From positions 17,353-81,352 of the forward strand of contig CAJXMG010000002.1 of the NCBI GenBank assembly GCA_913056395.1: a stretch of DNA of 64,000 nt, given 5' to 3'. Made by a program: the position numbers and the translations under genes. Numbering within the stretch: position 1 is the stretch's first letter; each line of letters starts with the position of its first letter. Source of the stretch: an uncultured bacterium. Its GTDB lineage: Bacteria; Planctomycetota; UBA8108; UBA1146. Shown piece by piece: positions 4,781 through 63,671 of this stretch. Below the pieces are notes generated by a model. That model did not search any database. It saw only the letters and a program-made list of their open reading frames with translations, and had not been told where the DNA came from.

Positions 4781-6590
4781 TGGTCAGGACTCCCGGTCCC
4801 AATTCCGATTGCGTGAGCGAATCGAATCCCCCCACCCGAATGAAGAAGTGATCCCCCTCTGAAACAGGAATATCACTGATTCTGGAGGTCAAAAGCGGGC
4901 ATGGGTTGCCCTGCGCATCAACGCCATCTCCATTGCAGGCCTGCTGAAGCAACTGCCCGCAAGATCCGCTGTAGATCACCATATCTGAGTCAAACACCAC
5001 TTCATCAGAGCACAGTGAGAAAGTCGCATTGCCACTTGTCGGAGCAGTGAAGTCGAACCAGATGTCTGCATACATTTGCCCCAGGGATGTGGATTCACAA
5101 CCGGAATCATCAAAGGGATCGGTCGAATCTGTCATCAAAGTGGTGTCAAAATTGTTGTCTCCAAGTGTCACCGTAACAGCACTGGTACATTCATCTCCCA
5201 GGAATCCAGCCCCACAAGTGGCATCAGAACACCCCGTATCACAACCCAATGAGTCGGGAGTGGGATCAAGTCCCGCCAACGGGAAGGGTGCAGCAGGCTC
5301 TGATCCCCCCGTAAACAGGAATGCCAAGAGGTTAACGGCGTCTGAAAGATCCAGAGAAGCGTCGTCGTTAAAGTCTGCGGCAGAAGCACAGGGCATATCA
5401 CCAAATACAAACAGGTATTGCAGTAAAGTGACCGGATCAACGAGGTTGAGTTCTCCGTCACTGTCGACGTCTCCGCGTATAAAGAGCACATCAGGAATGG
5501 GCAAGAAGATCTCGCATGATTCAGAATCAGCGGTGGTTCCCGCCAACGAAGAGCGAAGGACATAATCCAGGGTGATTCCTGGAATCGGTGCTGAATCGAC
5601 AAAGCTGGTCTCGAGCGAATTCAGACTCCCGATCAAGTTGCCCTGCCTCAGAACATCCACCTGCTCGTAGGGTAATGGGTTTTCCCAAGTCAACAGAACC
5701 GTATTGGCGTTCTGGGTACAACTCAAACCTGTCGGTGTTTCAAGTTCCCCGTCAATGGAAACAACGCAAGAAACCGCCGGGGAGGTAACTCCTGAAACAA
5801 TCCCCCTCAATGAGTAGGATCTCTCGGTTCCAATCAATGCGCCTGCATCTTCGAAGTACCCCAGACCTCCGGCAATTTCTGCAATCAGGAGCCCGTCCCT
5901 GCGTATCTGAATCTGCGAATAATCCACCGGTTCCTGCCAGGTCAAGAACACAGTCTCTGAAACTTCCCCACAAGCCAAATCCGTGGGCCGCAAAACATCA
6001 CTGATTTCCAAATCCAGAGTTCCGGAAAGAGTGGGTAGTATGACCCCATTCTGATCAGTGACGATGGAACCGATCCAGCCACACGTCAGATCAGGATCTG
6101 GCGTCGAAAGTTGAACGACACCATTGGGCGCATTTCCGACGACACGAAACTCCAACTGAGCGAGAGGTGTCGTTGTCGCTGACAAATTTTCACTGAGGAT
6201 CAAACCCAGGCTGAATGCTTCCTGTGCAGTACCATCCCACCAACTTGCACAACCCTGATCACCACCGACTCCGGCAGGCTCAGGTGCATTCCAGACAAGA
6301 ATTTCGGGGTCTGGAGATCCACTCAGGGATCCGGGCAAATCAACGGACAACAATTGGAGGGAGCCGGAATCCCAGGCTATCGCATGCTGTAATCCACGAA
6401 TCGTCTCGCCAGCAGGGTTCTCCAGCGAAAGCTCCATGACAAATGACTCACCCGGTGCATAGACACTCGATGGGCTACTCAGATTCAATTCGATTTGCTG
6501 GCCCGTTGCAGCGGAAGAACATAGACAAAGGCAGAGCAAAACGAAAACAGAGCTTTGGCTAAACCCCGCAACACTTTTCTGAAATGGCAT
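4767..6590 (-). CDS. Secreted surface protein: signal peptide, cohesin-like domain, two FN3-like modules, dockerin repeats, C-terminal PPC-like domain
   Basis: N-terminal hydrophobic signal. Dockerin EF-hand-like pair FIRGDVDSDGELNLVDP / DFNDDASLDLSDAVNLL. TWQEP / TWENP FN3-like repeats. Confidence 0.65.
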   Translation of the reverse strand: MPFQKSVAGFSQSSVFVLLCLCLCSSAATGQQIELNLSSPSSVYAPGESFVMELSLENPAGETIRGLQHAIAWDSGSLQLLSVDLPGSLSGSPDPEILVWNAPEPAGVGGDQGCASWWDGTAQEAFSLGLILSENLSATTTPLAQLEFRVVGNAPNGVVQLSTPDPDLTCGWIGSIVTDQNGVILPTLSGTLDLEISDVLRPTDLACGEVSETVFLTWQEPVDYSQIQIRRDGLLIAEIAGGLGYFEDAGALIGTERSYSLRGIVSGVTSPAVSCVVSIDGELETPTGLSCTQNANTVLLTWENPLPYEQVDVLRQGNLIGSLNSLETSFVDSAPIPGITLDYVLRSSLAGTTADSESCEIFLPIPDVLFIRGDVDSDGELNLVDPVTLLQYLFVFGDMPCASAADFNDDASLDLSDAVNLLAFLFTGGSEPAAPFPLAGLDPTPDSLGCDTGCSDATCGAGFLGDECTSAVTVTLGDNNFDTTLMTDSTDPFDDSGCESTSLGQMYADIWFDFTAPTSGNATFSLCSDEVVFDSDMVIYSGSCGQLLQQACNGDGVDAQGNPCPLLTSRISDIPVSEGDHFFIRVGGFDSLTQSELGPGVLTITID

Positions 6591-49347: not shown

Positions 49348-51291
49348 TTGAGCCCAGTCGTTATGATCGGAAGCAGAAGAGGGGGCAGTACTTTGGCCAG
49401 GGACACCAAGCCCAAACCAGGATGTGAAGGATTTCGCCGATCCGGCAACCGGACCCCCGGTCGTTCGGGAAAGCGACGGGCATGGGTTCTCGGATTTGTC
49501 CATCTCCTCATCGCAGGCCACCTGATTCACTGGTGGATCACGGGGCGCACTCTCTCCCCCATCGAACCTTCAGAGAGTATGTACACCCTCGAAAATGGTC
49601 AGGTGAATGCGGGCTTCATCTTTTTTGTAGTCGCCATCTTGTCGACCGCAGTACTGGGTCGCTGGTTCTGTGGCTGGGCATGTCACATGGTGGCGCTCCA
49701 GGACCTGTGTGGCTGGATGATGAAAAAGGTTGGAATCACTCCCCGCCCCTTCCGCAGCCGTCTGCTCTCCTGGGTCCCCTTCATTCTCGCCTTCTACATG
49801 TTTCTCTGGCCCACCTTCAAACGGGAAGTGTTTCCCATCGTTGAATCATTCCTTCCGGGATTGACCACATGGTTCGCTCCTGTGAAAGCGTGGCCAGGAT
49901 TCAGCAACCACCTCTTCGTGGAAGATTTCTGGGCCACATTCCCCTCGGTCATCGTCTCGATTCCGTTCTTTCTGATCTGCGGATTCGTCGTCGTCTACCT
50001 GCTGGGGGCCAAAGGTTTCTGTACTTACGGGTGCCCTTATGGAGCCTTCTTCAATATCGCTGACCGCGTCTCACCGATGCGCATCGTCGCAGATATGTCA
50101 AAGTGCGAATCGTGTGGATTGTGCACGGCACACTGCACCTCCAATGTACAGATCTCCCGTGAGATCCGTGTTCACGAGCAGGTGGTCGATCCGGGCTGCA
50201 TGAAGTGCCTCGACTGCGTGGATGTCTGCCCCAACAGCGTGCTTTCATTCGGTTTGGGAAAGCCGGGACTGTTGGCGAGCAAAGGCCCTGAAGCCAAAAA
50301 AATCGCCCGAAAATCCCATCTCTCCTGGGGTGGTGAACTGGCACTCGCATTGGTGTTTGCCCTGAGCTGGTTCAGCTGGCGAGGTGTTTACGAGCAAGTC
50401 CCCCTGCTGATGGCCACCGGTATCGCCTTGATGGTGACTTTTCTCTGTTGGAAAGGGTTCCAGTTACTGAGCGAGAAAGATGTCTCTCTCCAGCAGCAGC
50501 CCCTTCGGCGATCCGGGAAGTGGACTTCCTCCGGCAAGTGGGTTCTCGTCTCTGCTTTCCTCTGCCTGACGATGACGGTCTCTGCAGGGAAATCCCGTTG
50601 GGACCTCCAACAGTCCTCCCAATGGATGGAGAAAGCGGCGGTCAATCTGGATCAGGTCTTTTTGCCTGGCAAACCGCCTGTTCCAGCAGAAGCCATCGCC
50701 GCCGCTGAAAATGCACTCGGGTTTTTAAAGTCGCAGCTCTCTGTCACCCGGGGAGGATTCGCCCTCTTTGAGCCGGAAGGAACCCGTCTCGAAGAACGAC
50801 TCGGTTACATGAGTGCCGTATCCGGGGACCTGACGGCGGCCAAACGCTGGTGGAGCAGCGCCCTCGATGAACCTCTCGAACCGAGCCACGATCTGTTGTT
50901 GCGCTATGGCCAGTTGATTGAAAAACAGGATGGCCCGAAAGCCTTGGCTGACTGGCTGAACTCCTCCAGGGATCGCTGGGGGTTACTCCCCCCCCTCGTC
51001 ACACTTCGGGGAATTCTGGCGCAGAAACAGGCCACCGCCTCTGTTCAGAATGGAAGCTACTATGCTGCAGCCCTGCATCTGGAAGCGTTGATCCCCTGGA
51101 TCGGACCTAACCCCGGCTTGCTCGAAGACATGGGGCGACTGCTCGACTCAGCAGTCCCGAGTCAGGAAGTTGACGAGATGCGTCTGCGCCTCAACCAACT
51201 TCGGTCCAACAATGTCGCCCCGGGATCCCCTTCAGGAGTGATTCAGGAAGCAGGAGTGATTCAGAAAGCAGGAGTGATTCAGGAAGACTGA
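49348..51291 (+). CDS. NapH/CcoG/NosR-family membrane polyferredoxin with long C-terminal TPR-like extension
   Basis: GRWFCGWACH and CTYGCPYGAF motifs, plus two CxxCxxCxxxC(P) clusters (CESCGLCTAHC, CMKCLDCVDVCP). Several transmembrane helices. Confidence 0.6.
   Translation: MSPVVMIGSRRGGSTLARDTKPKPGCEGFRRSGNRTPGRSGKRRAWVLGFVHLLIAGHLIHWWITGRTLSPIEPSESMYTLENGQVNAGFIFFVVAILSTAVLGRWFCGWACHMVALQDLCGWMMKKVGITPRPFRSRLLSWVPFILAFYMFLWPTFKREVFPIVESFLPGLTTWFAPVKAWPGFSNHLFVEDFWATFPSVIVSIPFFLICGFVVVYLLGAKGFCTYGCPYGAFFNIADRVSPMRIVADMSKCESCGLCTAHCTSNVQISREIRVHEQVVDPGCMKCLDCVDVCPNSVLSFGLGKPGLLASKGPEAKKIARKSHLSWGGELALALVFALSWFSWRGVYEQVPLLMATGIALMVTFLCWKGFQLLSEKDVSLQQQPLRRSGKWTSSGKWVLVSAFLCLTMTVSAGKSRWDLQQSSQWMEKAAVNLDQVFLPGKPPVPAEAIAAAENALGFLKSQLSVTRGGFALFEPEGTRLEERLGYMSAVSGDLTAAKRWWSSALDEPLEPSHDLLLRYGQLIEKQDGPKALADWLNSSRDRWGLLPPLVTLRGILAQKQATASVQNGSYYAAALHLEALIPWIGPNPGLLEDMGRLLDSAVPSQEVDEMRLRLNQLRSNNVAPGSPSGVIQEAGVIQKAGVIQED
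51232..51285 (+). repeat. Three 18-bp tandem repeats encoding GVIQ(E/K)A at the C-terminus of the polyferredoxin
   Basis: gcaggagtgattcag(g/a)aa x3 read directly. Confidence 0.8.
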
Positions 51292-52241
51292 TCTTCCCCC
51301 GTCAGTTTCAGGTAGGCCTGCTCAAGGCTCGCACCTTCACGCACTTCATGGGGAGGCTGACCCTTCTCTATCAGAAAACGGTACAACTGGGACAAGGCCC
51401 CATTCAAGCCATCTTCCTGATCCGCATTCAGACTAACCGTCAATTGGTGATCGCTGAACTCCACTTCATTGACGTGGCTCAACTGCTTCACCTCAACGAC
51501 CAATTCCACCTCCACCTTTGCATCGAGGTGAATCTCAAAGCGACGCGCCCGCCTTGTGACCTCTTCCACGGTGCCACTGGAAATCAACTCTCCACCAACG
51601 ATCACACCGACCGAATCGATGAGGTCCTGTAGCTCCAAAAGGTTGTGCGAGGAAACGATGACCAGCGATCTTTCCGCCAACTCGCGCATCAGATGACGAA
51701 TCTGTCGTGCGTTGGCGGGATCGAGACCCGCTGTCGGCTCATCGAGAAGGACAATTTCAGGCTCGGCGAGGATCGCCTGAGCCACACCCAGTCTCTTGCC
51801 CATTCCATGGGAGAGAACAGCGGCTCCCCTGAAAAGCTCGGTCTCGAGGCCCACCCGCTGCATCACTTCGCGAACACGCTGTTCCGCCACTTCCCCCTGA
51901 TAACCATCCAGTTTCAAAAGAAAGAGAAGTTGATCAAAGATGGAGATATCCCTGGCGAAGATGGCGTCCTGGGGCATGACGCCCACTCGACCCATGAGGG
52001 CAGAAGCGACGGGGCTCGACTCCCCCAACACCGAAATCGTTCCCTTCTGCAAAGTCAGGAACCCGGCGATCAGGGAAAACAGTGTGGTCTTGCCCGCACC
52101 ATTGGGCCCGACCAGTCCGACGATTCCTTTTTGGGGCAGAACCCAATCGATGTCTTTCAGGGCCTGCTTTTCACCAAAGTGATGACTCAAGCCGCGGATG
52201 TGAATCGCTTCACCATTGGTGACTTCAGAAGAGTTGCTCAA
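51279..52241 (-). CDS. ABC transporter ATP-binding protein
   Basis: Walker A GPNGAGKTT, LSGGQ-like signature, Walker B ILLDEPT. Confidence 0.85.
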   Translation of the reverse strand: MSNSSEVTNGEAIHIRGLSHHFGEKQALKDIDWVLPQKGIVGLVGPNGAGKTTLFSLIAGFLTLQKGTISVLGESSPVASALMGRVGVMPQDAIFARDISIFDQLLFLLKLDGYQGEVAEQRVREVMQRVGLETELFRGAAVLSHGMGKRLGVAQAILAEPEIVLLDEPTAGLDPANARQIRHLMRELAERSLVIVSSHNLLELQDLIDSVGVIVGGELISSGTVEEVTRRARRFEIHLDAKVEVELVVEVKQLSHVNEVEFSDHQLTVSLNADQEDGLNGALSQLYRFLIEKGQPPHEVREGASLEQAYLKLTGEDQSS

Positions 52242-53164
52242 AGGTCAGCCCTCCGGAATCTCCATGCCGCGAGAGTCATGAACAGAAGACTGTGTCCCAT
52301 TGAATATGCCACGGCTTTGAAGACCTTGTCTCCATCCGGAGAGAGCAGTTCATGGGAGTATCCCCAGGGTAGCAGATACAGAAGATTGCCGAGGGGGTCC
52401 CATGCCTCCTGAAGACTGAGTGCCAGCAACGGTGTCCCCACCGTGGCTCCCACTGCCGCCAGAAGAGCGACCATCGGTACGCGGAAGACCGCAGAACACA
52501 AAACTCCAAGGGAGACATAGGGAGTCGCCAGACAACACAGGGAAAAAAAGCAACGCCCCGCCCACGGCACCATCGATTCAGTCGCCTCCGGTGGCAACAT
52601 GATCGACAGATAGACCACCACTGAGAACAAGAGCAGCAATATCAATACCCAGGACAGAATCAGTGTCCCCAGCCAGCGTCCCACCAAAAGGGACAGGCGG
52701 CTGGTTCGGGGAAGGAGATAGCGAACCGTTCGGTGTTGGACATCGCTGGAGATGGCGGTGAAGGACCCCAGCGGTAAAAGGAGTGGCAACACCACTCCCA
52801 ACAGTAAAACCGTGATCGACAGCAACATCGGATTGTCCTGAATCAGATATCGTGCCCACATTCCCAGATCGATCAGGTCTCCGGAATCCATTCGAGAAAG
52901 AATGTCCGTATCCGGTGGACCATTTTCATCTTCCCCACCCATACGCAAACTGGCGGTGGCAAGGGCAAATCCTATGGCCTTGCTTGCGGATTCCCTGAAC
53001 TCTTCCGCTGTCGTAAAGCCCAGCTCCACAGGAGTGATCGAGAGGTTTGCCAGTGAAAGACCGATCAGAATCGTCAGAAAGATGAAGGCGACCCCCGAGC
53101 CGGTCCGCAGGGAGTGAATGATCAGTTTTTGTGCATGGAGAAGGACATGACGAATTGGAATCAT
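52238..53164 (-). CDS. ABC-2-type transporter permease
   Basis: Six hydrophobic helices. ATGA overlap with the ATPase gene. Confidence 0.65.
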   Translation of the reverse strand: MIPIRHVLLHAQKLIIHSLRTGSGVAFIFLTILIGLSLANLSITPVELGFTTAEEFRESASKAIGFALATASLRMGGEDENGPPDTDILSRMDSGDLIDLGMWARYLIQDNPMLLSITVLLLGVVLPLLLPLGSFTAISSDVQHRTVRYLLPRTSRLSLLVGRWLGTLILSWVLILLLLFSVVVYLSIMLPPEATESMVPWAGRCFFSLCCLATPYVSLGVLCSAVFRVPMVALLAAVGATVGTPLLALSLQEAWDPLGNLLYLLPWGYSHELLSPDGDKVFKAVAYSMGHSLLFMTLAAWRFRRADL

Positions 53165-53553
53165 CCGGTTTTCCCCTGCGCTTGAAGAAAGTCACGGCGA
53201 AAGATCACATGGAGCATGAAAATCAGGAAAAGGGGATAGAAGATTTGTCGGGCAATGGAGAGTCCATTACCCCTGAGGAATGTTTGTGGCAACCATTCGA
53301 TGCTCAGAATGTAAAAGGCAGCCAAAGCGATGCCGCCAAGGGTGCCGAGCCAACGCCCGATCAAATTGCTGCGCTTCAACAAACCCCATATCGAAACCAG
53401 AAGCAGCAGTGTTGCTACCAATCCGATCACGGCAAGGATTTGCAAATCCATGGGAGTGAGTCCCTCATCGAGGAGAGACTGCAGATACTCGCGACGCCAG
53501 CCCCGGCCTCGCACCTCACCCTCTGCCACCTCCATGAGGTCATAGGAGGTCAT
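53161..53553 (-). CDS. Small integral membrane protein (unknown), translationally coupled to the ABC permease
   Basis: Hydrophobic helices. The 5' end is uncertain (Met at 53553, or a non-ATG start near 53630), and the track start at 53745 overlaps the bfr-like gene. Confidence 0.35.
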   Translation of the reverse strand: MTSYDLMEVAEGEVRGRGWRREYLQSLLDEGLTPMDLQILAVIGLVATLLLLVSIWGLLKRSNLIGRWLGTLGGIALAAFYILSIEWLPQTFLRGNGLSIARQIFYPLFLIFMLHVIFRRDFLQAQGKTG

Positions 53554-53635
53554 AAATCGCTCAATCGTCGTTCCGCCGACGGCAAGAGCGAAGAACCCAT
53601 TGAGAACCGAAAGGGCTGTCAGCCCACCGGGACGG

Positions 53636-54085
53636 TCACTCGCTGCCAACGGTATTTTCCCCGAGGAGCATCCGCAATTCGGAAACGTGTTCAGATTCCA
53701 GGGCCACCTGTTGACGGGCGAACTCCTCGAGAACCACGTCCCCACTACCCTCTACCACCTCGAGAAACTCCTTGTACGCATCCAGAGCCGCCTGCTCAAA
53801 GAGAAGGGCCGTTTGAAGTGCTTCGATGCCCGTACACTTTTCACCGGTCAACTCGAGATTGATTTTTGGCTGGGGGGTTCCCCCCACCTGAAGAATCTTC
53901 TCGGAGACCTGTTGGGCATGCTCGACCGTTTCTTCATGATTTTCCTGAAGCACCTTTTGGATGACCAGTCGATCGATCCCCTGGACCAGTGTGCCCAGAT
54001 GCAGATATCGGATTGAAGCTTCCAGCTCTTCCGCCAACAACTCATTCAGGCGGCTCAGAGCAACCTCACGGGAATATTCACTCAT
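53636..54085 (-). CDS. bfr: Bacterioferritin / ferritin-like diiron protein
   Basis: ExxH pairs (HEETVEH, LESEH) in a ~150-aa four-helix protein. Start set at MSEYSRE. Confidence 0.6.
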   Translation of the reverse strand: MSEYSREVALSRLNELLAEELEASIRYLHLGTLVQGIDRLVIQKVLQENHEETVEHAQQVSEKILQVGGTPQPKINLELTGEKCTGIEALQTALLFEQAALDAYKEFLEVVEGSGDVVLEEFARQQVALESEHVSELRMLLGENTVGSE

Positions 54086-54635
54086 CGTCTTTATCCTTGC
54101 TTTGCTCTTCAGAGCTGCTCTGCAATCGCTCGGAGATGGTCTCGATCTCTTTTCCCGGGAAAGCCTCAACCCGGCCTTCGCGGATACTGTCTTCGAGAGC
54201 GTTCACTTGCTGTTCACGATCCGAAGAAGAATCCGAAGCATCCTCTCTTCGATCGATGTAGATCGCCAGCGCCTCAGCGGTCAGATCGCTGACCAGGTGC
54301 TCAATCTTGCAGGCGTCCATTTCCGCCAGATCCGCAGGCAGACCGAGGGATTTTTCCAAAAACGCCTGAAACAGGACCCGCTTGGTGTGAATCCCCCGCG
54401 CAATCCGCTGGCCTTCATCAGAAAGCCCCAAATGCTTGTGCTGGTCTTCCACCACCAGCCCTCTTTGCCGGAGCCCCTTGAGGGAGACGGAGACACTTCC
54501 GCGGGTGATGCCCAGTTTTCGGGCGACATCCGACACTCGGGCATACCCCTGATCTTCCAGGAGTTGCTGAATCGCCGTCAAATGGTGGGCAGCAGAATGA
54601 CTTACGGGGTTCTGGTCGAACTCTCGCCAATCCAT
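54078..54635 (-). CDS. DtxR/MntR-family metal-dependent transcriptional regulator
   Basis: HTH VSDVARKLGITRGSVSVSLKGLRQRGLV. Start at MDWREF with a GAGGAGGAG ribosome-binding site. Overlaps the bfr start by 8 nt. Confidence 0.75.
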   Translation of the reverse strand: MDWREFDQNPVSHSAAHHLTAIQQLLEDQGYARVSDVARKLGITRGSVSVSLKGLRQRGLVVEDQHKHLGLSDEGQRIARGIHTKRVLFQAFLEKSLGLPADLAEMDACKIEHLVSDLTAEALAIYIDRREDASDSSSDREQQVNALEDSIREGRVEAFPGKEIETISERLQSSSEEQSKDKDDE

Positions 54636-54652: not shown

Positions 54653-54668
54653 GTTTGGGTACCCAAAC
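54653..54668. promoter_or_regulatory. 16-bp perfect palindrome GTTTGGGTACCCAAAC, candidate operator in the dtxR / feoA divergent region
   Basis: Read directly. About 20 nt upstream of the dtxR start. Related copies at ~61034 and ~62417. Confidence 0.5.
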
Positions 54669-54921
54669 GGGTTGATGAGCACTCAAACAGCATGTAAAAA
54701 TAGGCCTGCTGAGCACCGTGTTCCTGGATCTGCAGATTAATGCCCGATTCACGTAAGGACAAGTGTTCGTAATAGTTGCGAGGCTCACTTGAGCCTTCAT
54801 CTCAGGACTTTCGAACTGGAGATCCATGCAAACCGGTAACCCCAGCCCAGAAAAGAGTGCGCGACCCTCGCTGGAACAGGCGGCTCTCAGCACGTCTGCC
54901 CAGGTCAGATCACTCTTTGAC

Positions 54922-55128
54922 ATGAAACTGGGAGATCGGGGTCGCCTGGTGGAAGATTCAATCCCCCAGAATCAGCGCCCCCTGCTGGAAGCGATGGGCA
55001 TGTGTGGGGACTGCGAGCTTCGGGTTTGCCACAATTCCGGTTCCTGCATTCTGGAGATCGACGGACAAAGGGTAGGACTCAGTGAAGAGATCGCTTCTAC
55101 GCTCCGGGTTCTCCCTCTGGACAGTTGA
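54922..55128 (+). CDS. feoA: FeoA-family protein
   Basis: MKLGDRGRLVE...LLEAMGMCGDCELRV...LEIDGQRVGLSEEIASTLRV matches the FeoA SH3-like fold. The track ORF begins at 54826. Confidence 0.65.
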   Translation: MKLGDRGRLVEDSIPQNQRPLLEAMGMCGDCELRVCHNSGSCILEIDGQRVGLSEEIASTLRVLPLDS

Positions 55129-55239
55129 TCCAGATTTCTTTCCTTGAACACGCTTTCCTTTCACAAATCTGATTCACTGTTTATACAGCCGGCACATAGC
55201 CTGCATTCCAGTGTTGATTTTCAGGGTTGAAAAGAGTGG

Positions 55240-55929
55240 GTGAAGACTGACATGACCCGATTTTACAAGCAGTCCGGATTTACCCTTGCTCGCTCCAATA
55301 CCTCAACCCGTTGGCTTCTGACTCTCTTTTTCCTGACCGTGATCTCCGGTTGCGTCGTTGCTGCGATTCAATACTCCAGCAGTGCAGGAGGATTCACCCT
55401 CGAGAATGCCCGCGAATGGGTTCTGGGCAATGAGGACGACCTCGATGCTGAAGAGTTGATGTCCGAAAAAACTCCCAGAGAACTGCTCTCCTTCATCCAT
55501 GACCACATCTTCTCGCTGGGAATGCTGCTCTTCGTCGTCCTGCACCTGTTTGAACTGACGCCCTGGTCCACCGGGGTCAAGGTCACCCTTTCCTTCACAG
55601 GCTTTGGAAGTCTTGCGGGGTTGCTCTTTTCACCCCTCGCCATCGCTTCCGGAAGTTCACTGGCACTCTTCACCCAGATCATCGGCGGAAGCCTTCTGTT
55701 GCTCAGTCTGGTAATGGGATCTTTGGCATGCCTCGACGAGTTGTGGTGGGCACCTCGCCGAAGAAATCGGGCGGGCAAGGCCGATCCCCCGGCTTCAGAC
55801 CCCCTCTTCCCTGCCAAAGCCTCGAAAAAAACAGACTCGGGCAAGTCGGAATCGGGAGGCTGTCCCATGGGCTTCGGGTCCGGTCAAAAAAATCCCGGGA
55901 AACCTTCGTCAGAAGATTCCCCGGGATAA
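55240..55929 (+). CDS. Integral membrane protein of unknown function, downstream of feoA
   Basis: Four or five hydrophobic helices and a Gly/Ser/Lys-rich C-terminal tail. Confidence 0.4.
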   Translation: MKTDMTRFYKQSGFTLARSNTSTRWLLTLFFLTVISGCVVAAIQYSSSAGGFTLENAREWVLGNEDDLDAEELMSEKTPRELLSFIHDHIFSLGMLLFVVLHLFELTPWSTGVKVTLSFTGFGSLAGLLFSPLAIASGSSLALFTQIIGGSLLLLSLVMGSLACLDELWWAPRRRNRAGKADPPASDPLFPAKASKKTDSGKSESGGCPMGFGSGQKNPGKPSSEDSPG

Positions 55930-55955
55930 TCCACTTCGCATATGAATGAGTGGCT

Positions 55956-57128
55956 TTACTTGCTCTTTTCAGCGGCCTGTTCCGCTTTCGCTTCCTGAAC
56001 CAGCAACTCGATGGCGTCGTCCATTTCTTTGCCACGGATATCCTTGTAACGAATGATTCCCTTGGCGTCGATCAAGTAGATCGTCGGCCAACCGGTCACA
56101 TTCCAGCGTGTTGATATCGGTCCACCAGGACTTCCATCGTAAAAGCTGAGCCAGTTGATCTTGTTTTTCTCGACCACTTCACGGGCTTTTTCGATGGAGG
56201 AATCCGAATTGATTCCGACGATGGCAAAAGGATCTGCAGAGTATTTCTCCACGAGCGACCGCTCGTGAGGGTACATGGCCCTGCAGGGGCCTCACCAATC
56301 ACCCCAGAAATCAAGCAGGATCACCTTGCCTCTGAAAGAGGACAGCTGCATCAACTTGCCGGAGATCTCCTTGCCAATGATTTCAGGTGCGACACAACCG
56401 ACCTGAAGATTCTTCATTTCGAAGAGGTCGCCCTTGACCTTGTCGGCATAAACGGATCTCCCGTAAGAGACATCCCCATACTCATCCTGAACCCTTTTGA
56501 GCAGAGCCAGGCCCTCACTGCGGGTCTCTTCCTTCTTGCCCTTGATCTTGGCAAGAGAGTAACAGCCTGCGGCCTGAACTTCCCTGTGAGGCGAGTCACT
56601 GACCACCACGCTGAGAAAATCACACATGGCAGGAGCCATGGCATCGGAGCAGTAGTGTGCGTAGCGCAAGACGTCGACCAGCTTCTCATTCTTCAGGTAG
56701 TGAGTCTTGAGTGCTGACAATGCCTTTTCTGCCATCCAACCGGCAGATTCACTTCTGCCAGCCAGAGCCAACAATTGGTCACAAGCACCGAGGGCCGCAT
56801 CTGTCCCCGCATACTTGTCGATGGCTTTGAGCATCTCGGGGCCGACGACCATCACAGGATCGAGAGCCGGATCGAGTTCGATCTTCTCCATCTCTTTATC
56901 GCTGAGACCTTTTTCCCGAGCCTCTGTCAGCGGCTTGTAATAAGCCTCCTGAGCCTTGCTCATTTTTTTATTGATCTCTTCAAATGCCTTTTCAGCGGCC
57001 GCTTCCATCTTTTCATCTGCGATCCCCGAAACTGAAGCGGGAGAAAAAGAGAAAGCCACTGCCGGACCCGACAGCATAAAAGCGATCACGAGACAGACGG
57101 TCCCGTATCGACGAAGACGAGGAATCAT
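55956..57128 (-). CDS. TlpA/ResA-like thiol:disulfide oxidoreductase, candidate selenoprotein (in-frame TGA at 56292..56294 at the first Cys position of the CxxC motif)
   Basis: Two track ORFs (56292..57179 and 55956..56276) lie in the same frame and are separated by a single TGA. The read-through reads ...VILLDFWGDW-U-GPCRAMYPHE..., i.e. the thioredoxin-fold WCGPC motif with U for C. The second ORF continues with a TlpA-like fold (SFYDGSPGG...GWPTIYLIDAKG). Signal peptide MIPRLRRYGTVCLVIAFMLSG. Confidence 0.6.
56250..56267 (-). promoter_or_regulatory. SECIS-like hairpin downstream of the in-frame UGA
   Basis: mRNA CACGAGC-GGUC-GCUCGUG: a 7-bp stem with the same GGUC apical loop as the E. 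coli fdhF SECIS, beginning ~24 nt after the UGA with the loop at ~31 nt. Confidence 0.45.
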
Positions 57129-57347
57129 GGGATACCCTTCCAATTTTGACCTTCCGGTCGATCCACCTCCGTGGATCAATCTGCAACCAAAGATACCACA
57201 GTGGAAGAAATTGGCAGGGTCCTATTTGGAGCAGGGTCCACAATCTCCTCCGGACGTGCGGCTCCGCTTCCGGACCAGCAACAGGAGAGAGACAACTGCG
57301 ACGAGAGTCACAATCCAGAATTGGGAGTCTGATTCAAACATGGATTC

Positions 57348-59291
57348 TCACTCCCACCCAAGAAGCAAAATCAACATGCGCATGGCGGCAGCCATACCCC
57401 ACGCCAGGAGGCTCATCCATGTCAACTGAAGGATCGCCCACTTCCATGCCCCAGACTCCTTGCGAGTAACCGCAAGTGTGGGAAGGCACTGCATCGCCAG
57501 CACGAAAAAGACCAACAATCCAGCAGCCGAAGAGGGTGTCAGAAGAGGAGAACCATCATCCCGTCTGGAGTTTCTGATCTTCTCCATCAATGGTTCCGCT
57601 TCTGCCTCTTCGCCGGTTCCCAAAAGAACACTGGTTGAGGACACAAAAACTTCTCTGGCGGCAAAACTGGCCATGATCGAAATCGACAATTGCCAATCGG
57701 CTCCTATGGGTGCAAACACCGGCTCCACACTCTTGCCGATTCGACCCAGGTAAGACGCGGCGGTACTCTCTCGGGAAGCGAGGGAATCCGCCTCCTCGAC
57801 GAGAGATTCCGCTTCCTCCACAGATTCCACTGCTGCAGCTTTGGCTCGCAAATCGGCGACAGCAGAACTCTCTGTGCTCTTGGGATAGGTTCCCAACCAC
57901 CAGAGAACGATGCACATCAGCAAAATGACGGTTCCCGCATTTTTGAGGAAGAGCCAACCACGCTGGAAGGCGATTTTCAGGGAGTCCATCAATGACGGTC
58001 GCTGAAAGGGAGGCATCTCGAGAACCAGGTCAGGACTGGGCCCGGGCAACAGGAAACGCCGAACTATCCAGGCGCTGAAGACCGCTGCCAATGCTCCCAG
58101 CAGGTAACACCCGGCAAAAGCCAATCCGGCAATGAAGGGTTTTTCAGGAAAGAGCAACCCTACCAGCAGCTGGTATACCGGCAATCTGGCTGCACAAGAG
58201 AGGAATGGAGCAACCAGAATCGCTGCCAGACGATCCTTGCGATCCGGAATCAAACGCGTGCACAGAATTCCTGGAATGGCACAGGCGTGACTCGACAGCA
58301 AGGGAACGAAGGAATGCCCTGGCAGGCCGAATGGTCGCAGCCAACGATCCGCAACCAAAGCTGCACGGGCCAAATACCCAGTTTCCTCCAAAACACTGAT
58401 GAGGAAAAACAACAGCAAAATCTGAGGCAGGAAAATCAGCGTACCTGAGACGCCACCGATGATTCCCTCGACGACGAGACTTCGGACCTCGCCTTCCGGC
58501 ATGCTTGCGGAGACCCAATCCGCGATCAAAGCAAAGGTATTGTCGAGCCATTCCATGGGAATCTGGGCCAACCAGAAAACACATCCAAAAAGCAGGCTCA
58601 TGATGAGGAAAAAGGTCGTCAGCCCCCAGAAGGGATGAAGCAGGAACCGATCGAGGCGATCCTCTTTCTCTCTTCGCTTTTTGGCTTCCTCCGGTCGAAC
58701 GGGGCGTGTCACCGCTGCGACCGTATCGTCGACCCACTTCGAGTCGAGAACCGTATCCTGAGGACTCACGGGCCGCTCTGCCGCTGCCAGAATAAATTCC
58801 TTGAGGGCTACATTTCGGTGTGCATGACGATGAGCCAATTCCATGACCGGGACCTGAAGAATCTCTTCCAATCGCTGGAAGTCGATCTCCACACCCCGGA
58901 GCCGTGCTTCATCGGTTCGGGTCACAATGACCGCATTTGCAGTCCCTCTTTGCAGGCACTCCGCCAACAGGTTCATGTTTCTGCGCAGGCTGACCGCATC
59001 GATCACACTGACGATCAAGTCGGGATTTGGGGAAGCCTCCAAATGTTGTTGGCAATGACGGGATTCGGGAAGGTCCAGTTGCAACCCGTAACACCCGGGG
59101 AGATCGGTGACCTCCACATCGATGTCTCCCCAACGATCCTCACCCACCAGCGATTCCGCAGTGATTCCGGGAAAGTTGGAGACTCTGGCATTCCCCGTCA
59201 CAAGGGCATTGAAGAGGGTGGATTTTCCAACGTTGGGATTTCCGGTGACAGAAATGCGGAGTGTTTTCCCGGATTGTTCTTGGTTCATCAC
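57348..59291 (-). CDS. feoB: Ferrous iron transporter FeoB
   Basis: G-domain GNPNVGKSTLFNAL and a permease domain with many transmembrane helices. Confidence 0.85.
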   Translation of the reverse strand: MMNQEQSGKTLRISVTGNPNVGKSTLFNALVTGNARVSNFPGITAESLVGEDRWGDIDVEVTDLPGCYGLQLDLPESRHCQQHLEASPNPDLIVSVIDAVSLRRNMNLLAECLQRGTANAVIVTRTDEARLRGVEIDFQRLEEILQVPVMELAHRHAHRNVALKEFILAAAERPVSPQDTVLDSKWVDDTVAAVTRPVRPEEAKKRREKEDRLDRFLLHPFWGLTTFFLIMSLLFGCVFWLAQIPMEWLDNTFALIADWVSASMPEGEVRSLVVEGIIGGVSGTLIFLPQILLLFFLISVLEETGYLARAALVADRWLRPFGLPGHSFVPLLSSHACAIPGILCTRLIPDRKDRLAAILVAPFLSCAARLPVYQLLVGLLFPEKPFIAGLAFAGCYLLGALAAVFSAWIVRRFLLPGPSPDLVLEMPPFQRPSLMDSLKIAFQRGWLFLKNAGTVILLMCIVLWWLGTYPKSTESSAVADLRAKAAAVESVEEAESLVEEADSLASRESTAASYLGRIGKSVEPVFAPIGADWQLSISIMASFAAREVFVSSTSVLLGTGEEAEAEPLMEKIRNSRRDDGSPLLTPSSAAGLLVFFVLAMQCLPTLAVTRKESGAWKWAILQLTWMSLLAWGMAAAMRMLILLLGWE

Positions 59292-59334
59292 TTACGCCCC
59301 CTGAAAAAGCACTGCCCAATCAGCCAGAAAAGTC

Positions 59335-60951
59335 TCAGCGCTGATGACGCCCGACAAAACGTGGCTGGCTCTCACCCTCAACCAGAATCACTGCAGAAGC
59401 ATTCGGGCAGTTATCCAGAATCGTTCGTGCTCTCTCTTGTCCGAGAAGAGCGACAGTGGTGCTCAAGGCATCCGCCTCGGTGGCACTGTTCGAAAGAACC
59501 GAAGTGGTCAGGATACGTCCCGGTGAAGGATTGTCGAGAAGTTGCACTAGGTGATCCCCGCGTTCATAGCACGCAGTGGTCGCCAGTGAGGAGCGAATCA
59601 GTGACAGCTCATGGAGGACAGACTTGCCATCCCTGGGGTCATGGATTCCCACAGCCCAGGATTTTTCACCGGGGGGCGGATCGAGTGCCAAAAGTTGGCC
59701 TCCGAAATCGAGAAGAGCACGGGAGCAGCCGTGGGACTCAAGTACGACCGCCGCACGATCGAGGGCATAACCTTTTCCGATTCCACCCAAGTCGAGAATC
59801 AGGCCGGGACTCAACAGGGTGATCGTCCCCTTTTCCCGATCCACCTTGACGCTGCGGAAGCCATCCTTCTTCAGGGTCAGATCAAAGGCTCCCCCACTCT
59901 CTCTGGACATGGCGAGTGCTTTTTCGACGACCTCGACAGTTTCCCGGGCAACCTTGACCGGCTCTCCCACAGGTGCCGCTTCTACCCTCAAGACGTCGCT
60001 CCCCGCTTTCCAGCGGCTGTGCAGCGATTCCAGGCGCTCTACTTCAGAATAGGCGGCTTCCACAGCCTTGAGTGCCTGCTCTCCGTAGACCTCCATCTTG
60101 AGGACGGTCCCCATGGCGGGACGAGCCCTCTCGACGGAAGCCGGTTTGTCTTCCTTACCTGATCGGAGTACAGAAACGTCCTCAGGGCCCGCAGCGGTCA
60201 CCGGTTCCGCGGAGGCGGGTTCACCGTATGCCAGAGAGGAGCCGGAAAGAGCCTGCCAAACCAGATCCAGATTCTGTTTCTGCGAAACTTCAACGGTCGC
60301 GATCGATCGTCGCACTGCACGAACAGCTGCACGGGCAGAAAGAGTGGCACCGGAGAGGTTTCTGATTCCGCGGTGGAGCTTCAGCGACTTGCCCAGTTTT
60401 TTATTCCTGAACTGCCGGGTGAATCGGGGAGATTCAATCTCCTGACCGATGTGCTCCCGGTAAACGAGAACCTGAAGGTCAAGGACGCGCCGATCATTGT
60501 CGAGGGCGACAAAGAAAGTGATGGGACGATACTTCCCGACCTCATCGAGGATCACCACAGATCCCAGTCTGTTACCTTGGGGAGAGGTGACCCGAAACAG
60601 AGTGGTCTGTTGGTCATTGGTTCTCACCCTGCTCATCTCAACGATCTTCTTCTTCACTTCCCCTTCGACCGGAACATGGCATCGCTCTACGTGCACATCT
60701 GCACTCCACAGATCAGCAATCAGATCCCTGCTGAAGAAGCCGGAAGTCTTTTCGGGAAGCGTTGTCTCAGTCGACACACCTGTCTCGGAAGAGACGGATT
60801 CAGATGCACCTGGCTCAAGAGCCAGTGCCTGGGAAGAAACGGTCATGACCCACAGCAAACCCGCAACCAACCCGCAGTAACGGAAGCAGACCCGCGACTC
60901 GCGGATCCCTTCGGAATGCGTGCTGAAATCACTGCAGGAAACAGGGCTCAT
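59335..60951 (-). CDS. Fused FMN-binding domain (flavinylation target) and ApbE FAD:protein FMN-transferase
   Basis: FMN_bind motif NLSGATLSARA (SGATxS), ApbE motifs GGAFDLT and DLGGIGKGYALD. Start moved to the signal-peptide Met MSPVSCSDF... Confidence 0.7.
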   Translation of the reverse strand: MSPVSCSDFSTHSEGIRESRVCFRYCGLVAGLLWVMTVSSQALALEPGASESVSSETGVSTETTLPEKTSGFFSRDLIADLWSADVHVERCHVPVEGEVKKKIVEMSRVRTNDQQTTLFRVTSPQGNRLGSVVILDEVGKYRPITFFVALDNDRRVLDLQVLVYREHIGQEIESPRFTRQFRNKKLGKSLKLHRGIRNLSGATLSARAAVRAVRRSIATVEVSQKQNLDLVWQALSGSSLAYGEPASAEPVTAAGPEDVSVLRSGKEDKPASVERARPAMGTVLKMEVYGEQALKAVEAAYSEVERLESLHSRWKAGSDVLRVEAAPVGEPVKVARETVEVVEKALAMSRESGGAFDLTLKKDGFRSVKVDREKGTITLLSPGLILDLGGIGKGYALDRAAVVLESHGCSRALLDFGGQLLALDPPPGEKSWAVGIHDPRDGKSVLHELSLIRSSLATTACYERGDHLVQLLDNPSPGRILTTSVLSNSATEADALSTTVALLGQERARTILDNCPNASAVILVEGESQPRFVGRHQR

Positions 60952-61033
60952 CGACTTCTTCCTCTGATTGAAAGGGACGGTTTCGGGACCCAATGACGGA
61001 CCCGCCGAAAATAGAACTGATTTGGTACCGTTT

Positions 61034-61049
61034 GGCAACCCAAACAAAT
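61034..61049. promoter_or_regulatory. GTTTGGCAACCCAAAC, third copy of the GTTTGG..CCAAAC palindrome, upstream of the FMN_bind/ApbE-feoB genes
   Basis: Read directly. 6-bp arms with a 4-nt spacer (or 7-2-7 with one mismatch). Confidence 0.4.
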
Positions 61050-61169
61050 GACTTCTTTCACTGCTTTTGATCAGATTTACCCAAATTCAGCCCTCAGACT
61101 CTCATTGCCCATATTTGGCCATTGATTCCCGGCTCTGGCTTCCGAGAGCCAGAGCCGGAGAAAAATGGC

Positions 61170-62324
61170 CTAGAAGTAGGTCGCAGCGGAGAAGATGAAG
61201 GTTCCGTCGGGATCCGCAGATCCCTCGATCGACTCCTGCTCGTAGTCGAACTTGAGAACCGTCTCGTCCGTCGGCCGCATGTTGAAACCATAGGTCATGC
61301 GGTTCGTCACCGGGCCGGTGAGATCCTGCTCTTCCCAACGGATCGTCACCGCACAAGAGGAATCATCCCCCCACAGGTTGGTGACGAAATCCGGGAAGAA
61401 CTTTTTGGAGACTTCGATGGAGGTTGCGCTGATGTCGTCGGGAACTCCGCCGGCAATCGCCGCTGCGTCGCGGTCGATGGAAACATGACCCATCTCAAAG
61501 TTCAGGATCGTCGCACCCACTGCCTCAACCCAGCTGCCCAGATCTGTCGTGATATCGATGACGGTAATATTCAGATCGAGTTCGCCGGCGTCATCCCATG
61601 GGCCAGTCCAATTCGAGAATCCGATTTCGGTTCCAAGTACCGGGCTGTAGGTAAAACGTCCCACAAAGCTGGCGGGGCGATCCCCCATGTTGGTTTTCAG
61701 GCTGGGACGCCCACTCCGAATACCACTGGAAGTGTTGAAGTTGTATCCCCCCACACCGTCTTCACCCTGGAAACCGTTGACCGCATAGAACTCCATTCCC
61801 CAGGTTCCATCATCCGCTCCCCAGACTCCGCCCAGACCGGCACTGGTCAATGTCGAAGGAACAATCGAACGTGCGACAAAGGGGCGATTCGTCAACTGAC
61901 GCATCGGTGAGTCGTGATAGAGATTGGTCGACCCCAGGGGAATCAGAATCGCTCCGCTTCGCAGGGTCCAACCACCAAAATCCACATCGGCGTAGGCATA
62001 TTCAACTTTGGTTTCACCGTCACCTCTGGGGGCGCTGGCACCTCCATATTCGAATTCGATTTCGGCGGAGAAACTTACATTTTCGCTGATGTTCGCATCC
62101 AGCATCGGAACCAGTCGATGCTGTTTGAAATCGAGACGATCACTGTTCATGAACAACTCAAGATCCAGATATCCACCCAGGCGAATATCCCGATCCCCTT
62201 CTGCGGCGGGGCGATTGTCGTAACGGTCGACCTGTGCTTCGAGAACTCCGAAACTGGACAGAGTCAAAGCCAGTACGCAGACCAGAAGTGTGATTCTGGT
62301 GGAGAACGCAGGATTCAGCGGCAT
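61170..62324 (-). CDS. Putative outer-membrane beta-barrel (porin-like) protein
   Basis: Signal peptide MPLNPAFSTRITLLVCVLALTLSS, alternating amphipathic beta-strand pattern, C-terminal aromatic ...AATYF. GAGG ribosome-binding site before the ATG at 62324. Confidence 0.5.
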   Translation of the reverse strand: MPLNPAFSTRITLLVCVLALTLSSFGVLEAQVDRYDNRPAAEGDRDIRLGGYLDLELFMNSDRLDFKQHRLVPMLDANISENVSFSAEIEFEYGGASAPRGDGETKVEYAYADVDFGGWTLRSGAILIPLGSTNLYHDSPMRQLTNRPFVARSIVPSTLTSAGLGGVWGADDGTWGMEFYAVNGFQGEDGVGGYNFNTSSGIRSGRPSLKTNMGDRPASFVGRFTYSPVLGTEIGFSNWTGPWDDAGELDLNITVIDITTDLGSWVEAVGATILNFEMGHVSIDRDAAAIAGGVPDDISATSIEVSKKFFPDFVTNLWGDDSSCAVTIRWEEQDLTGPVTNRMTYGFNMRPTDETVLKFDYEQESIEGSADPDGTFIFSAATYF

Positions 62325-62416
62325 ATTTCGTTTCCTCTCTGAGGAGGCACGTAATCGATCATTCGCACCTCGTCTGAAAATCGTACTCTGCCGATGGTTA
62401 TAAAATGGCCCCCCTG

Positions 62417-62432
62417 TTTGGCAAGCCAAACA
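62417..62432. promoter_or_regulatory. GTTTGGCAAGCCAAAC palindrome (7-bp arms, 2-nt spacer) ~95 nt upstream of the porin gene
   Basis: Read directly. Same architecture as the dtxR-proximal palindrome. Confidence 0.45.
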
Positions 62433-62489
62433 ATTGAAATAGTCGCCAAAATGCCTGTTTTTTGTCAAATTCCCGGAATCCTCCATAGG

Positions 62490-63671
62490 ATGGAATCCAT
62501 GAGGGATATCTGGCAAAAACTGATCTCGGGTCAACTCGATTCTCTGCTCCATAAGGCGCAGGACACCCCCCAGGGTGACGTTGCCGCCATCTCACGGTTG
62601 AGGAAACATGGCTCCCTCGAAGAGGTCTCCGTGGTCCTTGAAGCCCTCGAGGCTCGCCGCCGCTCCCGGGGCCGGCTTCGAGATTCCCAAACATGGCTGA
62701 TGGATCGTGAAGGCATGGAGCAAGCCACCCGAACGACCGTCGCCGAACACAAGGCACAGAGAATGCGATCCGCCATCGGCTCGGAAACGGTCATCGACCT
62801 CTGTTGCGGAATCGGCAGTGACACCGCGGCTCTCGCCCAATCCGGACCTGTAATCTACGTCGACCATGATCCGGTGCGCGTCGAATTGACCCGCTTTAAT
62901 CTGGACCAGTCATCGAAGAAGCCCAGTAACTCACACCCTCTCGTTGCGGACGCAAAGTGCCTGCCCCTCCCCCCCCTGCCATTGCATGTCGATCCCGCGC
63001 GCCGCATCGATGGTCGTCGGGTTCACGACTTTGAAGGAATGGTGCCGGGACCTGAGATACTGAACAGTCTGATCGGCAGACATCATTCCGTCGCATTGAA
63101 GTGTGGCCCAGGAATCTCCGTCGAGGAGTTACCGCCCGGTGAGATTGAGTGGCTTCAGGATGGCAACGACCTCGTCGAAGCCACACTCTGGTGTGGAGAC
63201 CTGGCCCAATCGGCCAGACGCAGTGCAACACTTCTGCGCCAATCCCTGACGATCAGCGGTGAACAGGAACCTCTTCAACAAAGCAGCCTGAAAAATCCCG
63301 CCTTTCTGCACGAACCCTGTTCCGTCATCGAGCGCTCCGGATTGGTGTGCATGGTTCAGGGAGAAATCGCCGCTGGTGAATGGCACCCCGGTCTCGGCTG
63401 GCTCGCCGGTGAAGAAGAGAGAACCAGTCCCTGGTTCCGCAGTTTTGCAGTGGTCGCCCAAATGGGGTGGCACGAAAAGAAAGTCGTCGACTGGTTTCGC
63501 CAACAGGGGTGTGCACCTGCAAGTATCAAAACCAGGGGGGTGCAGGAAAATCCCTCACAGTTGATCAAACGCTTCAAGGGAGATCCGGGGCCGTGGATTC
63601 TCGCACTGCTCAGAAGAGGGCTTCAGATTGAAGCCTGCATCCTCGAAGAGCTGAATCCATTGGCAGGGTAA
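62490..63671 (+). CDS. Class I SAM-dependent methyltransferase
   Basis: Motif I VIDLCCGIGSDT. The start is uncertain (62394, 62451 or 62490), and the later one was chosen because the upstream palindrome probably belongs to the divergent porin promoter. Confidence 0.55.
   Translation: MESMRDIWQKLISGQLDSLLHKAQDTPQGDVAAISRLRKHGSLEEVSVVLEALEARRRSRGRLRDSQTWLMDREGMEQATRTTVAEHKAQRMRSAIGSETVIDLCCGIGSDTAALAQSGPVIYVDHDPVRVELTRFNLDQSSKKPSNSHPLVADAKCLPLPPLPLHVDPARRIDGRRVHDFEGMVPGPEILNSLIGRHHSVALKCGPGISVEELPPGEIEWLQDGNDLVEATLWCGDLAQSARRSATLLRQSLTISGEQEPLQQSSLKNPAFLHEPCSVIERSGLVCMVQGEIAAGEWHPGLGWLAGEEERTSPWFRSFAVVAQMGWHEKKVVDWFRQQGCAPASIKTRGVQENPSQLIKRFKGDPGPWILALLRRGLQIEACILEELNPLAG

Follow-up and report, generated by a model that had tools for sequence, protein, structure and literature searches.

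A conserved palindrome at iron-uptake promoters of marine Planctomycetota is the probable operator of a DtxR/MntR-superfamily regulator

We analysed a window of 64,000 nucleotides (64 kb) from an uncultured planctomycete (Planctomycetota; UBA8108; UBA1146; GenBank assembly GCA_913056395.1, contig CAJXMG010000002.1, positions 17,353 to 81,352 of the forward strand), in which a 16-bp palindrome recurs in front of three transcription units of an iron-related gene neighbourhood. The three sites are conserved across species, keep a fixed placement relative to promoter-like elements and are co-located with a gene, dtxR, that encodes a regulator of the DtxR/MntR superfamily. The palindrome is probably the operator of a metal-dependent repressor, bound most likely by a dimer of this regulator. 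The identity of the binder, its metal and the sign of regulation are what we infer here; the regulator is the likely binder in view of its co-location with the motif, the function of its family and the geometry of the operator.

Results

Three exact copies of one palindrome

The pattern GTTTGGNNNNCCAAAC has three exact matches in the window, all of them intergenic. Site 1 (GTTTGGGTACCCAAAC, 54653-54668) lies in the divergent region between dtxR and feoA, site 2 (GTTTGGCAACCCAAAC, 61030-61045) upstream of the genes for an FMN_bind/ApbE protein and FeoB, and site 3 (GTTTGGCAAGCCAAAC, 62416-62431) upstream of a putative porin gene; no strand is assigned to any of them. The three palindromes and their sequences had been reported in an earlier note made from the letters of this DNA, which placed site 1 correctly (54653) and sites 2 and 3 (61034 and 62417) a few bases away from their true starts (61030 and 62416). 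Its judgement that such a recurrence is unlikely by chance was borne out: 0.21 matches with up to one mismatch are expected per window, and none of 100 dinucleotide-preserving shuffles gave three. Pfam confirmed the gene assignments of that note, and its statement that the sites stand in front of iron-related transcription units held as well.

The core of the motif is GTTTGG-N4-CCAAAC, and its extended form, approximately TTGTTTGG-SWWS-CCAAACAA, spans 20 bp in an 8-4-8 layout. There is no further copy of GTTTGGNNNNCCAAAC within one mismatch in the window, nor, in a separate scan, any with two mismatches, and the 17 copies with three mismatches, against 28.5 expected, are at or below chance. 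One of these, at 60980 between site 2 and apbE, was dismissed, being kept only among the closest relatives. A weight matrix built on 21 distinct sites scored the three sites at 27.6-31.7 bits and revealed no additional regulon member in the window, where nothing else reached 11 bits. Its scores are bimodal: real sites lie at 22.5-34.1 bits, and the gap from 12.1 to 22.5 bits is empty in about 250 kb of related sequence. A similar density of the motif inside coding regions, which the earlier note had named as evidence that would speak against an operator, was not seen, with zero off-target copies in about a quarter of a megabase from motif-bearing lineages.

The palindrome is the best-conserved block in orthologous loci

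One genome per species was scanned, yielding seven orthologous loci from metagenome-assembled genomes (MAGs) of marine Planctomycetota, with regulators that are 98-69% identical. Exact copies stand at all three positions in the seven loci, L005, which is cut by a contig end, showing site 1 only. Footprint alignments comprised seven loci for site 1 and six each for sites 2 and 3. In each of the three intergenic alignments the palindrome is the best or joint-best conserved 16-column stretch. The arms are invariant at 12 of 12 positions at each site, versus 24%, 19% and 13% invariant columns elsewhere, and at sites 2 and 3 the invariant columns number 15 of 16 each.

The motif accompanies regulator and feo genes in one lineage

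Homologues of the regulator are common in Planctomycetota, and we compared the DNA around a spread of them. An exact palindrome lies upstream of the regulator gene in L014 (62% regulator identity) and L017 (49%), a copy with one mismatch in L016 (61%) and L020 (43%), and a copy that is degenerate in one arm (GTTCTGTATGCCAAAC) in L019. L025, a relative of 72% GC that came from a motif-based metagenome scan, retains an exact site between feoA and dtxR. That the regulon tracks the structure of the operons supports reading the palindrome as an operator: in L014, on porin-apbE fusion, porin, apbE and feoB form one operon and site 2 is lost, and in L016 a porin/apbE operon lacks site 2 and is preceded by a tandem duplicate of site 3, the copies being 55 bp apart.

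Related palindromes were found in other gene orders as well. L144 and L145 have the order regulator-ferritin-feoA-feoB on one strand, with a variant operator 30-40 nt upstream of the regulator (ATGTTTTATTGTTAATACAC at 9940-9965 in L144, GTGTTTTACTGGTAAAACAC at 9953-9972 in L145). Both variants keep the outer frame TGTT-N12-AACA and have TA instead of GG in the inner arm, and both regulators carry the helix TRGSASITLKNL. In L146, GGTCGGTATGCCAAAC overlaps an ATGCCA-16-TATAAT promoter driving the regulator, a Fur-FeoA fusion and feoB. The fusion (L146:6886-7821) is a 311-aa protein that joins a FUR to a FeoA domain; its gene stands between that of the DtxR-like regulator and feoB. At the regulator loci without a feo neighbour (L018, L021 and L022) no palindrome was found, even when the TGTT-N12-AACA frame was allowed. 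The palindrome or a close variant goes with the regulator-feo neighbourhood as far as about 43% regulator identity, and in each of the loci bearing the motif, whose gene orders are of several kinds, the regulator is its neighbour. The motif is confined to one lineage within Planctomycetota, in keeping with the lineage-specific operator that the earlier note had envisaged. L017 was rejected as a counter-example carrying dtxR without feoA, since the gene caller had overlooked the feoA there. The true gene lies at L017:254-655 (- strand), and the deposited call is a 111-aa open reading frame (ORF) on the + strand.

The metagenome scan, run with TGTTTGGNTTGCCAAAC, returned at least 120 matches. 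Among the matches listed, those in L025, L065, L073, L121 and L131 are the only ones from this lineage, each standing at an orthologous promoter; the remaining ones are unrelated or chance matches, many of them inside ORFs, and none of the listed matches adds a new regulon member. Many matches are explained by ccTGTTTGGTTTGCCAAACa, an unrelated conserved string within an ORF of about 110-120 codons on contigs of 29-43% GC (L045:2452, L035:2359, L087:734 and about 25 others), which probably marks a gene conserved in some other marine lineage. The 16-mer of the palindrome itself turns up on marine-sediment contigs (L124:1098, and likewise L053 and L059), 119 nt ahead of a TetR-family gene, where it is probably an unrelated operator of coincidentally identical sequence. 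A Latescibacterota contig (L143:8683-11168) encodes two ABC-3 permeases with a C-terminal Fe_dep_repr_C domain beside ZnuA and a DtxR-like regulator, and there a palindrome, ATGTTCAGGGACATGAACAT, stands upstream of the regulator at 5162. These permease-Fe_dep_repr_C proteins resemble the chlamydial YtgC-YtgR fusion.

The sites are phased to promoter-like elements

Site 1 ends 17 nt before the ATG of dtxR, with the Shine-Dalgarno sequence AAGAGGAGG immediately between the two, and 157 nt before the ATG of feoA. Toward feoA, the palindrome is followed after 3 nt by TTGAYN and, 17 or 18 nt further on, by TAnnnn in 13 of 14 loci, whose GC content ranges from 51 to 72%. Near-consensus -35 hexamers (TTGACA, TTGACG, TTGACC) occur among them, and the -10-like variants are TAAAAA, TACAAC, TACACT, TAGGAT and TAGAAT. 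The promoter that we place in the window on this pattern (54672..54701, + strand) would consist of the -35 hexamer TTGATG (54672-54677), a 17-nt spacer and the -10-like TAAAAA(T) (54695-54701). Between site 1 and the start codon of dtxR lie anywhere from 16 to 92 nt, depending on the locus. feoA is divergent from dtxR in every locus with a site-1-type palindrome, L017 included. Since site 1 is phased to the feoA promoter and not to dtxR, and since the motif is absent where feo is absent, autoregulation would be a by-product of the divergent layout and not the core function of the site.

At sites 2 and 3, the right half read in the direction of the gene gives TTGCCA, which agrees with the -35 consensus at five of six positions. 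Site 2 lies 78 nt upstream of the ATG of the ApbE gene, and an invariant TCTATT follows 17 nt after TTGCCA in 7/7 loci. Site 3 lies 91 nt upstream of the ATG of the porin gene, with TATAAC 16 nt after TTGCCA in the window and at a spacing of 16-17 nt in close relatives.

A two-domain regulator with a distinct recognition helix

The regulator (54078..54635, - strand; 185 aa) matches Pfam Fe_dep_repress and Fe_dep_repr_C, i.e. the winged-helix domain PF01325 at residues 16-69 (31.9 bits, cut-off 26) and the metal-binding/dimerisation domain PF02742 at residues 73-129 (41.3 bits, cut-off 27). Pfam detected no SH3-like third domain, nor any other domain, past residue 129. The nearest solved relatives are two-domain dimeric MntR proteins (E ~1e-8). 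Within the DtxR superfamily the regulator is of the two-domain, MntR-like type. Its scores stay far below the NCBIfam equivalog cut-offs of MntR (69.1 bits against 153, and 51.5 against 138) and DtxR (31.2 against 290).

The metal ligands of Bacillus subtilis MntR, D8/E11/H77/E99/E102/H103, align to H17/T20/R86/C109/E112/H113, four of the six positions being replaced (H17, T20, R86 and C109). The helix-turn-helix and residues H13, H17, H18, D107, C109, E112 and H113 do not vary among 14 diverse homologues, so that the predicted ligands of the primary metal site, H17/C109/E112/H113, are conserved. Work of Guedon and Helmann from 2003 is said to tie a Cys at this metal-site position to selectivity for Fe over Mn. 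The His/Cys/Glu/His set points to Fe(II), not Mn(II), as the likely metal, a step that rests on this published selectivity work.

MntR contacts bases through His35, Pro36, Ser37 and Lys41 (PMC11275975). These residues align to T44, R45, G46 and V50 of the planctomycete protein, in which all base-contacting residues are therefore replaced, including the Pro that touches a thymine methyl in MntR, DtxR and IdeR. The segment ITRGS is invariant in the family, and the recognition helix TRGS is unlike those of MntR, DtxR and IdeR; the replaced recognition residues would account for the different operator sequence. A covariation of helix residues 48/50/54 (VSV..G versus ASI..N) with the inner arm bases (GG versus TA) was not established. 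The hint had come from L144 and L145, in which the helix TRGSASITLKNL goes with the operator GTTTTA..TAAAAC.

A probable operator of MntR-like geometry and different sequence

The earlier note had described the motif as unlike the Fur and IdeR/DtxR boxes, and neither is present here: the 19-bp DtxR/IdeR box TTAGGTTAGCCTAACCTAA, the enterobacterial MntR box AACATAGCnnnnGCTATGTT and the Fur box GATAATGATAATCATTATC each have zero matches in the window at up to three mismatches. The regulator, like MntR, would be a dimeric two-domain binder of the DtxR superfamily without an SH3 domain. Like the E. coli/Salmonella-type MntR box, whose geometry is 8-4-8 (PMC1698941), the motif is an even-centred palindrome; it spans about 20 bp, with two 8-bp arms on either side of a 4-bp centre. 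It is conserved at base pairs 3-10 from the dyad, where the recognition helix and wing of MntR, which contacts base pairs 4-9 of each half-site, touch the DNA (PMC11275975). In both systems the site overlaps or abuts a -35 hexamer. The sites of B. subtilis MntR are 18 bp long with 9-bp inverted repeats. The differences from MntR concern the arm, which is TTGTTTGG here and AACATAGC in the MntR box; the metal site, with Cys109 and His17 in place of Glu99 and Asp8; and the targets, which are Feo iron-uptake genes here and not Mn transporters.

With DtxR and IdeR the system shares a DtxR-superfamily repressor (here a putative one) over an iron-uptake regulon, a palindromic operator at promoters, an iron-storage gene in the regulon and a Cys-x-x-Glu-His motif in the primary metal site (C109, E112, H113). 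The site H17/C109/E112/H113 is closer to M10/C102/E105/H106 of DtxR/IdeR than to the carboxylate-rich site of MntR. Unlike DtxR and IdeR, however, the regulator lacks the C-terminal SH3-like domain and does not keep the residues of the ancillary site (H79 is replaced by R86), and the DtxR box is odd-centred with a 9-1-9 layout. The Fur boxes at proteobacterial feoABC offer a functional analogy, as sites of a metal-dependent repressor at the promoter of a ferrous-iron transporter, although Fur belongs to an unrelated protein family and its 19-bp box is AT-rich.

Genes around the three sites

On the dtxR side of site 1, a gene for a ferritin-like protein (53636..54085, - strand; Pfam Ferritin, 1.6e-18) follows dtxR, its ATG (54085) overlapping the end of dtxR by 8 nt. 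Against the NCBIfam models of Dps and bacterioferritin, the protein stays far under the cut-offs. The dtxR-ferritin pair is kept in L014-L022, L144 and L145, and in a Phycisphaerales genome regulator and ferritin-like protein form a single polypeptide of 323 aa (P0084; L021:10001-10972). 3' of the pair, abutting or overlapping ORFs encode a membrane protein, an ABC-2 permease and an ABC ATPase (51279..53745, - strand). Their order is repeated in L014, L016 and L017 (Pfam ABC2_membrane_2 and ABC_tran), and they probably share an operon with dtxR and the ferritin-like gene. On the other side lies feoA (54826..55128, + strand; Pfam FeoA), whose predicted 5' leader contains two blocks, AGATTAATGC and GGACAAGTG (54734-54743 and 54757-54765), that are conserved in all seven orthologous loci. 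It is followed by an ORF for a membrane protein (55240..55929, + strand), the orthologues of which in L014 and L016 belong to the Aq_1264_TM family (PF27139).

Downstream of site 2, a fusion of FMN_bind and ApbE (59335..60951, - strand; Pfam ApbE 2.5e-43, FMN_bind 5e-5), plausibly a periplasmic flavin-dependent ferric reductase, precedes feoB (57348..59291, - strand; Pfam FeoB_N, Gate and FeoB_C). A thioredoxin-fold gene (55956..57179, - strand) is probably the last of this unit. Its translation reads ...LLDFWGDW-[TGA]-GPCRAMYPHERSLV..., with an in-frame TGA at 56292-56294 and a redox motif W-U-G-P-C. The TGA is kept in 10/10 orthologues, none of which has a Cys codon in its place, and a conserved hairpin, CACGAGC-GGUC-GCUCGUG, about 24 nt 3' of it resembles a bacterial selenocysteine insertion sequence (SECIS) element. 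The product is a probable selenoprotein, and gene callers break the gene into parts of 277 and 107 aa.

The gene behind site 3 (61170..62324, - strand) encodes a putative outer-membrane porin with a weak match to Porin_O_P that lies below the Pfam cut-off; it is syntenic in L001-L007, L014 and L016. A hairpin with a 12-bp stem (61129..61158, - strand) was read from the sequence 3' of this gene, between it and site 2. It is without a U-tract and was not called in a terminator scan, and a hairpin of different sequence occupies the same region in L003. In the opposite direction, 30 nt past site 3, a promoter match TTGTCA-18-TAGGAT (62462-62501, + strand) points toward a THUMP-like methyltransferase gene. 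The mRNA of this gene may be leaderless, since 7-8 nt separate the end of the -10 element from the start codon, an ATG at 62499.

Discussion

The palindrome has the general features of an operator: dyad symmetry, intergenic positions at promoters, and conservation above its flanks across species. In the mechanism that we propose, a metal-loaded dimer of the regulator, most likely carrying Fe(II), would occupy and repress three promoters. At the feoA promoter the operator would abut the -35 hexamer, and at the FMN_bind/ApbE-feoB promoter it would overlap the -35-like TTGCCA, as it would at the porin promoter. Protein bound at site 1 would also stand between any upstream dtxR promoter and the ribosome-binding site of dtxR, and could in this way damp the dtxR-ferritin-ABC operon.

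Several observations weigh against this mechanism. The window feoA promoter (TTGATG-17-TAAAAA) falls under the promoter-scan threshold, so that its inference rests on conservation, and no conserved -35/-10 pair in the direction of dtxR was found on either side of site 1. The promoter elements are assigned by analogy with sigma-70 promoters, in a phylum without established promoter rules, and are to be taken as provisional. At feoA the operator has its centre near -47, on the upstream side of a -35 that is close to consensus, a placement less typical of a repressor than overlap with the -35 or -10, and repression of a ferritin-like gene together with iron uptake would not be textbook logic. The link of the motif to feo promoters is no looser than its link to the regulator gene: every motif locus has feo beside the regulator, and L018, L021 and L022, which have no feo, lack the motif despite the same TRGS helix, so that co-location with the regulator could be secondary. 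Finally, the covariation of helix and operator that was predicted failed in L146, where the regulator (P0108, helix SASLTLK) goes with a CC-type half-site.

These last points are what would be expected if the palindrome were instead the operator of another transcription factor encoded elsewhere, of the Fur family or uncharacterised, with the DtxR-like gene as a mere member of the regulon. The FUR-FeoA fusion between regulator and feoB in L146 adds that Fur-type proteins occur in this context. We nonetheless consider such a factor rather unlikely, because the ORFs surveyed in the window include no second transcription factor, because the even 8-4-8 geometry fits MntR-type boxes (PMC1698941) and not the odd-centred 19-bp Fur (GATAATGATAATCATTATC) or DtxR box, and because the regulator gene stays adjacent in every motif-bearing locus although gene orders differ. 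A different assignment of sign, compatible with repression by the same regulator elsewhere, is that the regulator activates feoA from about -47, repression being confined to sites that overlap a promoter or fall within a leader. B. subtilis MntR or Mycobacterium tuberculosis IdeR could serve as models for such a dual regulator, and MntR is a known activator from sites that lie upstream of the -35 and overlap it (PMC11275975). The gap of exactly 3 bp between palindrome and -35 in 13 of 14 loci is a strict phasing of the kind typical of activator sites. The feoA -35 hexamers, however, are near consensus, unlike those of activator-dependent promoters, and metal-bound activation of Fe(II) import would be counter-productive. 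Footprints of the DtxR/MntR family reach several bp past the dyad and so would cover the -35. Activation of feoA is, in our view, an improbable extension of the model.

Each copy can also form a stem of 6-8 bp with a 4-nt loop, site 1 lies in the dtxR leader adjoining the Shine-Dalgarno sequence, and the single-mismatch variants (C11 to T; L016 and L020) would keep a G-U pair on the dtxR strand, all of which would suit an RNA hairpin that acts in 5' leaders on mRNA stability or translation in the style of an iron-responsive element. Folded in the direction of the gene, however, the sites are no stabler than shuffled sequence (z = -0.66, -0.52 and -1.74), in the L016 and L019 variants the hairpin is no longer the best fold, and there are zero matches in Rfam; on these grounds an RNA hairpin or known RNA family was rejected. 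The arms, moreover, are invariant and never covary, the conserved TT/AA flanks lengthen the dyad as in protein sites, and a transcript toward feoA would not include the site, which precedes the inferred -35. An RNA role is thus very unlikely. As for a dispersed repeat or chance recurrence with no regulatory role, the same 16-mer does occur in unrelated metagenomic contigs, inside genes and upstream of the TetR-family gene in L124. But every copy from this lineage stands at an orthologous promoter with a strong footprint, no repeat body surrounds the palindrome, and no shuffle out of 100 reaches three copies; the conservation data effectively refute this explanation, to which we assign next to no weight.

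A variant of the repressor model concerns what the regulator senses. The 8-nt gene overlap, the pairing in nearly every homologous locus and the P0084 fusion raise the idea that the regulator acts as a unit with the adjacent ferritin-like protein, in which case operator occupancy would report the loading of the ferritin partner and not free Fe(II). We hold this to be doubtful. If true, the placement of operators at the feoA -35 and in the dtxR-ferritin leader would be part of a storage-coupled feedback loop.

Our literature searches turned up nothing published on this motif or on iron regulons of the DtxR type in planctomycetes. The operator sequence, the regulator clade and the regulon are new; the kind of switch is that of an ordinary metalloregulator operator, and the understanding of how metalloregulators work is unchanged by it. 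Iron regulation in Planctomycetota is essentially uncharted. The palindrome provides a concrete operator for an uncharacterised DtxR/MntR-superfamily clade of marine planctomycetes, together with a first, predicted regulon of feoA, feoB, the porin, the FMN_bind/ApbE protein, the probable selenocysteine-containing thioredoxin-fold protein and the regulator-ferritin-ABC operon. The motif could help with the annotation of iron-responsive genes in marine MAGs and with the interpretation of metatranscriptomes of iron limitation.

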